From: a virus
DNA: 11,108 nucleotides
Virus genome (UHGV): UHGV-0246901
Direction: 5' to 3' (one strand)
The notes beneath the pieces are model-generated. The model did not search any database. It was not told the origin of the DNA and saw only the letters and a program-made list of their open reading frames with translations. Both the position numbers and the translations under genes were made by a program. Positions within the stretch are counted from its first letter, which is position 1. Every line of letters begins with the position of its first letter. This document shows positions 132 through 1,732 of this stretch, in pieces.

Positions 132-223
132 CCGGTACGGTTTGGTACGGTAGTGTTCTGTGAGGTCGGGTAATGTAAGGTAAGGTATGGGTGGATGGTA
201 GTAGCCACATTAAAAATCTACCA
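132..223 (+). repeat. GT5-H unit 1: (NNGGT)n pentameric tract 132-191 plus stem-loop 196-223
   Basis: Eleven consecutive pentamers ending in GT (ccggt acggt ttggt acggt agtgt tctgt gaggt cgggt aatgt aaggt aaggt), then stem TGGTAG(196-201)/CTACCA(218-223) with loop TAGCCACATTAAAAAT. No ORF; period is 5, not 3. Confidence 0.7.
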
Positions 224-229
224 AGTTTC

Positions 230-258
230 TAAAGAGTCTTCTGTTGAGGGTTCTTTAC
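230..258 (+). repeat. third copy of AAGAGTCTTCT motif (variant with extra bases) ~40 nt upstream of the first CDS
   Basis: TAAAGAGTCTTCTGTTGAGGGTTCTTTAC matches the spacer of IR-A (TAAGAGTCTTCT..AGAGGGTTT) but lacks the flanking 10-bp arms. Confidence 0.4.
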
Positions 259-298
259 AAACAACTTAACAATCAACTAAAGTGTGGAGCTAAATGCT

Positions 299-886
299 AT
301 GAAACTGTTAAATATCAAAATCACTGGTACTCGTCCTTTCCTGAGCCACGCAGATACGCTGTCAGACCCATTAAACCCTCTGACAAAGTATCACAAGTCT
401 CTGTCCAGTAAACGTAAAAAGACTGACGAAGACTATGCGCTCTTAGCAGAAAGCCAACTGGTAACTTCTTGTTACTACGATGAGCAGCTAGGTTTTGTTA
501 TGAACGGTGAGATGATTGAGGCTTGTATCAAGTCTGGTGCAAAGCTCAACAAACTTGGTAAGGTAATTGACCGAGCCATTATGCTGACAGATGTAGTCTT
601 CCCAATGACTATCAAGAACTGTCCAGCAAACCCACAAGAACTTGCTAAGAATCCAGATTTTATCTATGCTAAATCTGTTAAGATTGGTACAGCACGAGTT
701 ATGAGCTACCGTCCAATCTTCCGTGACTGGTCTGTAGAGTTTGGTTTGATGTTCGATGAAGAGCAAATTACCCGAGAGGAACTCCTGATGGTTCTGGAAA
801 ATGCTGGCAACCTTTGTGGTGTAGGTGATTGGCGTCCACGCTTTGGTCGTTTTTCTGTAGAAGTTATTTCAGAAGGTAACGTTTAA
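299..886 (+). CDS. hypothetical protein (~195 aa)
   Basis: Track ORF 284..886 begins at GTG. ATG at 299 is preceded by GGAG (286-289) at ~9 nt and is the preferred start. Stop TAA 884-886. No recognisable motif by eye. Confidence 0.7.
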
Positions 887-888
887 TT

Positions 889-1329
889 ATGAATACAAAA
901 GCATTAGCAGCAAAGTTTAGTTACGGTGACACTGTATCACATTCTGAGATGGACACCTTCTTAGGTATTGTGAAGCCAACTTATCAAGGTGACATTGTTA
1001 AGTACGAAGATGAAATGAAGGCTTATGCACTTACACGTCTAAACCGACTTGAGAAGTTTATTGAAAAGCTTCTTAAAGAAGAGAAGATTTATCTGGTTGC
1101 TTCAATGGGTGTTGGTTATCGTGTGGTTGAACCTAAGCATCAAGCAACTATTGCAAAACGTAAAATGTCTGGTAAGATTGGTCGTGCTTTAAAGCAAGCC
1201 ACTCAAGCAATTGAGAATGTGAATACTATGGCACTTAGTCATCAAGAACGTTCACGACTGATTGAACAGCAAAACCATTTAGCTGCTATGAAAGCTAACA
1301 TTAACAAGCAACGTAGAAAACCTTTCTAA
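889..1329 (+). CDS. hypothetical protein (146 aa, basic C-terminus)
   Basis: ATG two nt after the upstream stop (translational coupling); consistent codon usage; followed directly by an intrinsic terminator. Confidence 0.7.
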   Translation: MNTKALAAKFSYGDTVSHSEMDTFLGIVKPTYQGDIVKYEDEMKAYALTRLNRLEKFIEKLLKEEKIYLVASMGVGYRVVEPKHQATIAKRKMSGKIGRALKQATQAIENVNTMALSHQERSRLIEQQNHLAAMKANINKQRRKPF

Positions 1330-1337
1330 GTTGACTA

Positions 1338-1363
1338 GGAAGCCTCTTCGGAGGCTCCTTTTT
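1338..1363 (+). terminator. rho-independent terminator T1
   Basis: GC-rich stem AGCCTC(1341-1346)/GAGGCT(1351-1356) with TTCG tetraloop, followed by CC and T5 (1359-1363), immediately after the stop of 889-1329. Confidence 0.7.
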
Positions 1364-1390
1364 AAAAGGTCTTTAAACAGGGTCTTTTAA
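1359..1390 (+). repeat. M motif copy 1: TTTTTAAAAGGTCTTTAAACAGGGTCTTTTAA (tandem GGTCTTT)
   Basis: GGTCTTT at 1368-1374 and 1381-1387; whole 32-mer repeated at 1609-1640 with one indel and one substitution; in both copies it starts at the T-run that follows a hairpin. Confidence 0.55.
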
Positions 1391-1391
1391 T

Positions 1392-1478
1392 AAGGTAGGA
1401 TAGGGTGGTGTATGGTTTGGTAAGGTTGTGTAAGGTAAGGTATGGGTAGTTAATCGGAGCTACATTAAAATTCGATTA
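1392..1478 (+). repeat. GT5-H unit 2: pentameric tract 1392-1441 plus stem-loop 1451-1478
   Basis: Ten phased pentamers, nine ending GT; stem TAATCG(1451-1456)/CGATTA(1473-1478), loop GAGCTACATTAAAATT. Stem sequence differs completely from unit 1 but pairing is preserved. Confidence 0.7.
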
Positions 1479-1517
1479 CATCACTTAAGAGTCTTCTAAG
1501 AGGATTTTTAAGTGATG
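1479..1517 (+). repeat. IR-A copy 2: CATCACTTAA / 19 nt / TTAAGTGATG
   Basis: Arms 1479-1488 and 1508-1517 identical to copy 1; spacer GAGTCTTCTAAGAGGATTT differs at 2 positions, one of which converts a G-U to an A-U pair in the inner helix. Confidence 0.7.
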
Positions 1518-1528
1518 TGGGGCGAGGC

Positions 1529-1608
1529 TCGGTGAGGTGGGCTAAGGTATAGCGCGGTGTTGTTCGGTATGGGTAGTTAGTCTCAGCTACATTAAAATGA
1601 GACTTACC
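1529..1608 (+). repeat. GT5-H unit 3: degenerate pentameric tract 1529-1568 plus stem-loop 1572-1608
   Basis: Same 5-nt phase but only about 6 of 10 pentamers end in GT; stem AGTCTCA(1579-1585)/TGAGACT(1598-1604) with outer GGTA/TACC, loop GCTACATTAAAA; followed by T5, so this copy is terminator-like. Confidence 0.6.
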
Positions 1609-1640
1609 TTTTTAAAAGGTCTTTAAAAGGGTCTTTTAAC
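1609..1640 (+). repeat. M motif copy 2: TTTTTAAAAGGTCTTTAAAAGGGTCTTTTAAC
   Basis: GGTCTTT at 1618-1624 and 1630-1636; near-identical to 1359-1390. Confidence 0.55.
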
Positions 1641-1732
1641 AAGGTATTGTATGGTGTAGTTTGGTTAGGTATGGTTAGGTGTGGTAAGGTAAGGTATGGA
1701 AGGATGGCAGTAGCCTTATAAAAAATCTGCCA
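1641..1732 (+). repeat. GT5-H unit 4: (NNGGT)11 tract 1641-1695 plus stem-loop 1705-1732
   Basis: Eleven consecutive pentamers all ending GT (aaggt attgt atggt gtagt ttggt taggt atggt taggt gtggt aaggt aaggt); stem TGGCAG(1705-1710)/CTGCCA(1727-1732), loop TAGCCTTATAAAAAAT. Confidence 0.7.

Follow-up and report, generated by a model that had tools for sequence, protein, structure and literature searches.

VIPR (Viral Interference Programmable Repeat) systems were described in two 2026 bioRxiv preprints (10.64898/2026.04.26.720920; 10.64898/2026.04.26.720927). According to these sources, the guide RNA (vrRNA) contains 9-16 tandem YNNGG repeats with conserved GGY and hypervariable NN, and it is capped by an invariable 3' tail of about 40 nt with a hairpin and a pseudoknot. 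The NN dinucleotides are reported to pair with DNA while every third target base is skipped, and an 80% match is given as the target threshold. The SUSP1 clade was defined by more than 90% identity to SUSP1 Vipr. For SUSP1, one vrRNA upstream and three downstream were described, and its vrRNAs were sequenced as abundant RNAs of about 100 nt, recovered together with Vipr on purification (10.64898/2026.04.26.720920). These SUSP1 preprints are the source for the expression of the RNA, the formation of the RNP, the skip rule and the cryo-EM cap. The direct basis of the present analysis is sequence anatomy, covariation, protein identity and clade-level targeting.

Two further systems are comparable. 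In class 1 CRISPR (types I and III) a RAMP backbone of Cas7 polymerises along the crRNA, bases are turned outward by thumb domains at regular intervals, and a variable guide is capped by a conserved structured handle, e.g. the 3' repeat hairpin of type I crRNAs. In contrast, the VIPR guide is noncontiguous, with two of five RNA bases read against two of three DNA bases. VIPR has no repeat-spacer array, adaptation genes or Cas6, is phage-borne, and silences rather than cuts. The TRAP site of the Bacillus trp leader (11 G/UAG triplets with spacers of 2-3 nt) shares about 11 triplets, the 5-nt period, free spacers and one protein subunit per repeat. However, TRAP is an 11-mer ring and VIPR a helical RAMP filament; furthermore, the VIPR spacers carry information, and the output is DNA targeting instead of attenuation.

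The DNA examined here, in the following called the window, is a stretch of 11,108 nt from the virus genome UHGV-0246901. Judged by its sequence, the phage is Felix O1-like, and the window very probably contains a type II VIPR locus from the SUSP1 clade. The system is of an already known kind; the finding is real, but not new. No mention of the element is made in the paper on the Felix O1 genome (PMC3185647).

Results

On the plus strand, one vrRNA in the vipr leader is followed by vipr, vap and an array of three vrRNAs. The vipr and vap genes, one RAMP and one accessory gene, are the only genes at the locus and lie between vrRNA-encoding intergenic regions, as in a minimal VIPR locus. Around the locus, the DNA shares about 92-96% identity with known Felix O1-like records. 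Genes and transcription signals are:

29..56, plus strand: sigma-70-type promoter upstream of vrRNA1, vipr and vap, in agreement with the consensus at 11 of 12 positions (TTGACA, 16 nt, TATACT)
299..886, plus strand: vipr gene, 195-aa RAMP protein (Cas7/Csm3-like); 191 of 195 residues identical to SUSP1 Vipr of PDB 36pp (E 2e-128)
889..1329, plus strand: vap1-type accessory gene, 146 aa; 145 of 146 residues identical to the gene after vipr in L020 (SUSP1 vap1)
1341..1363, plus strand: intrinsic-terminator-like hairpin with T run, 3' of vap
1732..1783, plus strand: long palindrome, then T run (-17.8 kcal/mol, z -5.9)

The promoter probably drives a vrRNA1-vipr-vap transcript, and the palindrome at 1732..1783 looks like a terminator of the vrRNA array. 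The loop of this palindrome contains the -35 hexamer of the promoter of the next operon (1751-1779).

The vipr product showed about 98% identity to the PDB 36pp chain (profile match E 2.9e-80), above the 90% limit of the SUSP1 clade, and agrees with the minimal RAMP of RRM core, G-loop and thumb expected of a Vipr protein. Its AF2 model reached a pLDDT of 94.9, and in a Foldseek search this model matched Csm3/Cas7 subunits from CRISPR complexes of types III and VII. The residues H17, E71, M72, R138, C173, D177, W178 and R179, described as GGY-contact positions (10.64898/2026.04.26.720927), are all present in the translation, in a region identical to the SUSP1 chain. For the comparison of vap, L020 was used as reference, the locus carrying the SUSP1 Vipr sequence. 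Pfam gave no family for Vipr and Vap, and PHROGs assigned the two proteins to families of unknown function only (phrog_5926 for vap). Distant Vipr homologues with 37-40% identity are also flanked by GGY/NN arrays.

Directly 5' of every hairpin, 11-12 pentamer units YNNGG were found in fixed register:

131..190, plus strand: vrRNA1 guide tract, 12 YNNGG units; NN = CC AC TT AC AG TC GA CG AA AA AA AT
1391..1445, plus strand: vrRNA2 guide tract, 11 YNNGG units; NN = AA AG AG GG AT TT AA TG AA AA AT
1518..1572, plus strand: vrRNA3 guide tract, 11 units; NN = GG GA TC GA GG AA AT GC GT TC AT
1640..1699, plus strand: vrRNA4 guide tract, 12 units; NN = AA AT AT GT TT TA AT TA GT AA AA AT

All four tracts show the published number and pattern of repeats, with conserved GGY and with NN bases that are hypervariable between near-identical phages. 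For 77 unique modules, GGT was 85-100% conserved with a period of 5 in the register -64 to -13 relative to the loop, and the NN composition was near uniform. The NN bases had a mean pairwise identity of 0.375, whereas the tail reached 0.985 and the vipr CDS 0.962. The unit adjoining the tail is a conserved AU (NN = AT in all four tracts). Runs of at least three GGTNN are essentially confined to the VIPR locus in a related genome of 87.6 kb; only one further run was seen, which covers 15 nt and lies on the other strand. A CRISPR array was considered and rejected, as the repeat analysis gave 5-nt units in modules of 120-130 nt instead of identical direct repeats of 25-40 nt with unique spacers in between, accompanied by only a RAMP and an accessory gene in place of cas genes for adaptation.

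The hairpins themselves had been noticed in an original prediction made from the letters of the window. All four inverted repeats were found where they had been placed, on the sense strand, and, in line with the description, a single compensatory pair (T-A to C-G) separates copy 4 from copy 1. The tails, their stems and the proposed pseudoknot strands are:

191..223, plus strand: vrRNA1 3' tail, stem TGGTAG 196-201 / CTACCA 218-223 (hairpin 1); covariance model 67.3 bits
191-194 and 205-208, plus strand: proposed pseudoknot strands of vrRNA1, GTGG / CCAC (covariation)
1446..1478, plus strand: vrRNA2 3' tail, stem TAATCG 1451-1456 / CGATTA 1473-1478 with G1457-U1472 (hairpin 2); 64.6 bits
1446-1449 and 1460-1463, plus strand: proposed pseudoknot strands of vrRNA2, GTAG / CTAC (covariation)
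1573..1608, plus strand: vrRNA3 3' tail, stem AGTCTCA 1579-1585 / TGAGACT 1598-1604 (hairpin 3); 70 bits
1572-1575 and 1605-1608, plus strand: outer pairing of hairpin 3, GGTA / TACC
1573-1576 and 1587-1590, plus strand: proposed pseudoknot strands of vrRNA3, GTAG / CTAC (covariation)
1700..1732, plus strand: vrRNA4 3' tail, stem TGGCAG 1705-1710 / CTGCCA 1727-1732 (hairpin 4); 51.2 bits
1700-1703 and 1714-1717, plus strand: proposed pseudoknot strands of vrRNA4, AAGG / CCTT (covariation)

Selection on the fold, as had been proposed, is supported by the stems. Among 33 distinct tails of 20 related phages, 89.9% of the cells pair, versus 31-47% in slid controls, and changes on both sides occur at five of the six core stem pairs; as the tails represent four paralogous types with their close orthologues, the independent compensatory events are few. 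The description of the loop had to be corrected. A length of 16 nt applies to copies 1, 2 and 4, but copy 3 has a loop of 12 nt, and the loop of copy 4 (AGCCTTATAAAAA) deviates from the consensus that had been given. Nor is the loop simply conserved: its bases 3-6 (CCAC, CTAC or CCTT) covary with the tetranucleotide that immediately precedes the stem (GTGG, GTAG or AAGG). These three sequence types suggest that both segments pair and form an H-type pseudoknot. Since this pairing covaries, it fits the hairpin-plus-pseudoknot cap described in the VIPR preprints; covariation was found for both helices of the tail.

In the proposed topology, stem 1 has 4 bp and stem 2 has 6-7 bp, and an A-rich third loop of 9 nt would cross stem 1. 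It resembles H-type pseudoknots with an A-rich loop 3, such as those of luteovirus frameshifting and telomerase. In contrast to these, the VIPR tail would cap a guide RNP and not serve recoding, and its pairing is deduced from covariation.

With up to two mismatches, the loop motif occurs nine times in the window versus 2.1 expected, and closing stems are present only at the four copies. A covariance model, recommended with the original prediction as a check, gave only these four matches in the window and only five, every one at the same locus, in the related complete genome of 87.6 kb. The tail model matches only VIPR loci of the SUSP1 clade; distant VIPR loci keep the repeats, without the hairpin. 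Single-sequence folding of the tails was marginal (z -0.8 to -3.1), so the support for the tail fold is comparative. Rfam, scanned at E up to 1, returned only two chance-level matches elsewhere in the window. The statement that the hairpins belong to no known RNA family is therefore right for Rfam; the element is nevertheless described in the 2026 VIPR preprints.

On this comparative basis, the four hairpins are the predicted folded 3' tails of four guide RNAs, and only the 3' end of a larger element. Among the roles suggested before, an RNA processing or stability element came closest, as the hairpin would be part of the 3' tail capping a VIPR guide RNA. The YNNGG repeats, the pseudoknot and the Vipr protein had been missed.

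Additional hairpins were detected next to and between the vrRNAs:

86..126, plus strand: spacer hairpin A, adjoining vrRNA1 on its 5' side, with about 19 pairs including G-U pairs (-20 kcal/mol, z -6.1); conserved throughout the clade
230..257, plus strand: A-like hairpin, 3' of the vrRNA1 tail and 5' of the ribosome-binding site of vipr (-10.2 kcal/mol, z -2.4)
1355..1398, plus strand: spacer hairpin B, 5' of vrRNA2 (-12.6 kcal/mol, z -3.1); conserved across the clade
1479..1517, plus strand: spacer hairpin A between vrRNA2 and vrRNA3 (-23.8 kcal/mol, z -9.0)
1605..1646, plus strand: spacer hairpin B between vrRNA3 and vrRNA4 (-14.2 kcal/mol, z -4.0)

Spacer hairpin B at 1355..1398 overlaps the T run of the terminator and the first repeat unit of vrRNA2.

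The guides of the clade were compared with an E. coli phage satellite by one-base-skip matching. Of 67 guides from the clade, 23 matched at least 20 of 24 NN bases within 26 kb of satellite DNA, and the maximum in a control of 30 kb chromosome was 17 of 24. SUSP1-clade guides match the satellite far better than control DNA. For the window, vr1 matched 19 of 24 bases (79%) in the satellite, where the match lies on a coding strand and the skipped bases fall at wobble positions. The guide vr2 likewise reached 19 of 24 (79%) in the satellite; both values are just below the published threshold of 80%. With vr3 and vr4, only background scores were obtained against three satellite loci. An idealised vr1 target was compared by BLAST with 5,426 E. 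coli genomes, where the best match still had five mismatches and no closer variant was detected. The exact full-length one-base-skip patterns of vr3 and vr1 gave no match in IMG/VR. Self-targets were not detected in the phage (best 17 of 24).

Discussion

The closest relative of the locus is the SUSP1 VIPR system (10.64898/2026.04.26.720920; 10.64898/2026.04.26.720927; PDB 36pp). As far as SUSP1 is described there, both share the layout, Vipr (98% identical), Vap (99% identical), YNNGG vrRNAs followed by an invariable tail with hairpin and pseudoknot, and, at the level of the clade, guides directed toward the same class of E. coli phage satellite. The phage is a different one and has NN guides of its own, of which two reach only 79% matches and two are without a match in the satellites examined.

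In the proposed mechanism, each vrRNA would consist of 11-12 YNNGG units and an invariable tail with a length of about 35-40 nt. The Cas7-like RAMP Vipr would polymerise on this RNA with one protomer per repeat, holding the GGY bases and presenting the NN dinucleotides. These could pair with DNA while skipping every third target base, and this pairing would silence genes of competing mobile elements, here the E. coli phage satellite. The repeats always keep the same phase with respect to the tail, whereas the tracts begin raggedly at their 5' ends; the tail may therefore set the phase of the filament, define where it stops on the 3' side, and protect the 3' end. A more detailed version is tentative and rather doubtful as a whole: the tail could be a phase-setting anchor from which Vipr assembles in 3'-to-5' direction, the AU unit could belong to the cap and not to the guide, the four stem versions could differ so that neighbouring tails of a tandem precursor cannot mispair, and hairpins A and B could be sites at which a host nuclease (e.g. 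RNase III) frees the individual vrRNAs. If true, the last point would supply a maturation route, a subject that the VIPR preprints, as far as available, do not address.

Three other explanations were considered. Regulation of the flanking genes by a TRAP-like attenuator, in which a ring protein on about 11 leader triplets switches the hairpin, is suggested by 11-13 conserved triplets with 2-nt spacers and a period of 5 as in the B. subtilis trp leader, by the location of vrRNA1 in the vipr leader, and by the tracts of locus L028, which end 20-30 nt before ribosome-binding sites. Despite the similar periodicity, the triplets are GGY, and Vipr is a RAMP described as forming a helical filament and not a TRAP-type ring (10.64898/2026.04.26.720927). 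Moreover, the spacers are not neutral, given satellite matches far above control under the one-base-skip rule, and only one of the four tracts is in a leader, the other three being located between a terminator and the following promoter. This makes a TRAP-regulated leader highly improbable, although some autoregulation via vrRNA1 in the vipr leader may occur.

Still less probable is the boxB-like antitermination site named in the original prediction, by which an antitermination protein would let RNA polymerase read through the local terminators. The hairpins are indeed sense-strand elements, placed within a leader or downstream of a terminator, and spacer hairpin B has GGTCTTTAA / GGTCTTTTAACAA, by eye loosely like boxA (GCTCTTTAACAA). 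A lambdoid nut site (boxA and boxB) was nevertheless rejected: the loops have 12-16 nt in place of a GNRA-like pentaloop, and their bases covary with upstream bases, which points to paired rather than displayed bases. No N-like gene is encoded, the adjoining RAMP equals SUSP1 Vipr in its RNA-contact residues, Rfam gave no match, and the hairpin is missing at distant VIPR loci that keep the repeats. After the identification of Vipr, the boxA-like motif of hairpin B was dropped, as were a C-poor leader related to Rho and origin tracts of the G-quadruplex or R-loop type.

A DNA-level element, also foreseen as a cruciform, with cruciforms or single-strand hairpins and G-rich iterons forming a replication origin, recombination or packaging site, would agree with the strong G over C skew on one strand (0.5-0.7), the position near DNA polymerase and ligase genes in related genomes and short GG runs that could give two-tetrad quadruplexes, but it is just as improbable as the boxB-like site, since the spacer hairpins need G-U pairs possible only in plus-strand RNA and replaced by C-A mismatches on the other strand, a pseudoknot is senseless in duplex DNA, the SUSP1 homologues were reported as small RNAs bound to Vipr (10.64898/2026.04.26.720920), and the same repeats in unrelated phages always adjoin vipr and not replication genes.

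The reading as VIPR guide-RNA tails adds one more Felix O1-like phage to those with such elements. Its value is confirmatory, as an independent replication from sequence of the GGY/NN code, the covariation of the tails and the targeting of satellites. VIPR is a phage-borne, CRISPR-related RNA-guided system that reads DNA via a gapped code, and it has been proposed as an ancestor of the CRISPR RAMPs.

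Identification of the hairpins as guide RNA tails

The four predicted hairpins are the 3' tails of guide RNAs of VIPR (Viral Interference Programmable Repeat), a system described in two 2026 bioRxiv preprints (10.64898/2026.04.26.720920, 10.64898/2026.04.26.720927). According to these preprints, VIPR loci are minimal and consist of vipr and a vap gene. The guide RNA (vrRNA) of about 100 nt is made up of 9-16 YNNGG repeats and, after them, an invariable 3' tail, which in the SUSP1 clade is a hairpin with a pseudoknot and caps the RNP. One protomer of the RAMP protein Vipr binds each repeat; the protein grips GGY, the NN dinucleotides pair with DNA and each repeat passes over one base of the target. 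Competing mobile elements are bound in this way and their transcription is repressed. SUSP1 VIPR shares the layout of the window, where one vrRNA precedes the genes and three follow them.

Features of the VIPR locus in the window
29-56, predicted promoter
86-126, hairpin A
131-190, repeats of vrRNA1; 191-223, its tail
230-257, A-like hairpin
299-886, vipr
889-1329, vap
1341-1363, predicted terminator
1355-1398, hairpin B
1391-1478, vrRNA2
1479-1517, hairpin A
1518-1608, vrRNA3
1605-1646, hairpin B
1640-1732, vrRNA4
1732-1783, long palindrome with T run, also holding the next promoter

The palindrome at 1732-1783 (13+5 bp, then TTTTT) resembles a terminator for the vrRNA array, and the TTGACA -35 hexamer of the next operon's promoter (1751-1779) lies in its loop.

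Direct reading of the sequence confirmed inverted repeats at 196-223, 1451-1478, 1572-1608 and 1705-1732 (copies 1-4), each closing a AGCYAYATTAAAA-like loop core, and the single compensatory pair that separates copies 1 and 4. The loop of copy 4 (AGCCTTATAAAAA) departs from the loop consensus of the original prediction, and the proposed 16-nt loop length does not apply to copy 3 (7-bp stem, 12-nt loop). The loop motif is over-represented in the window (nine matches, 2.1 expected), and closing stems were found for only four of the nine. Motif plus stem occurs five times in the complete genome of the related phage heid, always at one locus around a two-gene operon. Rfam contained no matching family.

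Upstream of the loop a strict 5-nt periodicity, missed by the original prediction, extends from about -73 to -13. It was observed with 77 distinct modules of the window and 19 related phages, aligned on the loop. Within the tract GGT is conserved at 85-100%, T being sometimes C, and the intervening NN are of near-uniform composition. The register relative to the hairpin shows zero shifts, and the 5' end is progressively less conserved. Between orthologous modules the identity is 37.5% for NN, 98.5% for the tail and 96.2% for the adjacent gene. Outside the locus, the 87.6 kb heid genome contains only one run of at least three GGTNN units, of 15 nt on the opposite strand. In the unit adjoining the tail (186-190, 1441-1445, 1568-1572, 1695-1699) NN is conserved as AU: 84% of the modules have the A and 90% have the U.

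A TRAP-like protein-binding tract, considered at first, and the boxB-like site and DNA cruciform suggested for the hairpins all disagree with the features that were tested.

Structure of the tail

Taken singly, the tails fold with no remarkable energy, hence the case for structure rests on comparison. The 33 distinct tails compared derive from four paralogous types, so that independent compensatory events are few. The six pairs of the core stem are hardly ever broken, and in five of them both partners have changed. The structural reasoning of the original prediction was sound and its finding genuine. A seventh pair alternates between G-U, G-C, A-U and C-G. Moreover, loop bases 3-6 (CCAC, CTAC or CCTT) complement the four bases directly 5' of the stem (GTGG, GTAG or AAGG), with covariation in three of these four pairs. 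Overall 89.9% of the cells were paired, versus 31-47% with partners slid by 1-3 columns. From this pairing we infer that the loop described as conserved is probably half pseudoknot strand and half invariant A-rich segment, which would be consistent with the hairpin plus pseudoknot outlined in the preprints.

A covariance model of the tail, the check originally suggested, detected four copies in the window, five in heid and no others there. Three E. coli satellite loci yielded a copy each, and a further compensatory change (A-U to C-G) is seen in one of these copies. No match was obtained in the distant VIPR loci.

Vipr and Vap proteins

No Pfam domain was found in the family of the adjacent 195-aa protein, of which phages and prophages contain at least 519 members. 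A profile built from 40 of them matched one solved structure, PDB 36pp 'SUSP1 Vipr protein' (E 2.9e-80); 191 of 195 residues of the window protein are identical to this chain. Its AlphaFold model (pLDDT 94.9) resembles the Csm3/Cas7 subunits that form the backbone of type III and type VII CRISPR complexes, and all GGY-contact residues given in the preprints are present. The second gene is identical in 145 of 146 positions to its counterpart in the phage whose Vipr matches the PDB sequence (L020).

GGT/GGC-NN arrays with 5-18 repeats in register also lie on either side of distant homologues (37-40% identity) from unrelated metagenomic phages; the window-type tail hairpin was not found there. 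In two such loci (L027 3065-4003, L028 2385-3823) the homologues (37-38% identity) have several GGC-NN or GGT-NN arrays around them, with 10-18 units per array. The L028 arrays have GGTTTTTT-type ends, 20-30 nt ahead of the ribosome-binding site of the next gene, and no hairpin. Downstream of the L027 arrays, 4789-4854 holds about 8 copies of a GAATCCT-like repeat with a 7-nt period.

Source phage and related loci

The window belongs to a Felix O1-like myophage, matched by 237 phage records at 80-99% identity, nearly all at 90-99%. GU169904.1, named 'Staphylococcus phage SA1', matches this Felix O1-like stretch over its full length (93.8%), and two 'Campylobacter' records match it too; for phages of an enterobacterial type such names seem mistaken. 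Phages otherwise 94-99% identical (L005-L022) carry between 3 and 5 vrRNAs, 1-3 upstream and 1-3 downstream of vipr. The tail stem type follows position: TGGTAG always adjoins vipr and TGGCAG is always last. Elsewhere in heid (L003), 23201-24883 is a gene-free 1.7 kb between convergent gene blocks with several annotated repeat regions and no GGTNN runs.

Hairpins A and B bracket every vrRNA (86-126, 230-257, 1355-1398, 1479-1517, 1605-1646). They are very stable (z -3 to -9) and conserved in the clade, where they vary chiefly in the apical loop. Because several pairs are G-U, they fold only as + strand RNA. In the VIPR preprints, as far as consulted, they do not appear; their role may be that of processing sites or of filament stops.

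Predicted targets in satellites

When the locus was compared by BLAST with 5,426 E. coli genomes, a vrRNA1-like segment turned up in unannotated DNA of 58 chromosomes. Three loci were inspected.

E. coli chromosomal satellites
L029, 467-15928
L031, 6300-17100
L030, about 13800-18400

Two of the loci are better preserved and form islands of about 11-15 kb, with genes for a serine recombinase, baseplate proteins and a tape measure; only a short remnant is left of the third. All three contain a single vrRNA with a window-type tail, and no vipr-like gene is annotated. They fit the satellite described in the preprint and appear to borrow the Vipr of the phage.

We scored 67 distinct 12-unit guides of 20 phages under the one-base-skip rule. 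Scores of at least 20/24 were reached by 23 guides in 26 kb of satellite DNA, versus a maximum of 17/24 in 30 kb of flanking chromosome. This independently reproduces the code and target class reported in the preprints. In a satellite gene the first guide of the window (vr1) matched the coding strand at 19/24, with skipped bases at wobble positions; 1 of 200 unit-order shuffles gave as high a score. This gene is present in 105 of the 5,426 complete genomes, and the whole set holds no closer vr1 site. A site spanning the ribosome-binding site and start codon of the next satellite gene was matched by vr2 (19/24). For vr3 and vr4 only background scores were obtained in the satellites examined. 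Exact full-length skip patterns of vr1 and vr3 had no match in IMG/VR, and no guide scored above background in its own genome.

In well-matched guides, units 3-13 match their targets at 0.76-1.00 and the AU unit adjoining the tail at only 0.50. This suggests that the conserved AU unit belongs to the cap and not to the guide.

Role of the tail

We propose that the tail would fix the phase of the repeats and the point where the filament ends on the 3' side, and would shield the 3' end. These roles are suggested since the register is invariant, the 5' end is ragged and, according to the preprints, the protomers adjoining the pseudoknot are always ordered in cryo-EM. The element is already known, as part of a described system and of the same clade in which that system was characterised. 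The residual interest is modest and concerns the function of the tail and the conserved hairpins between the vrRNAs.
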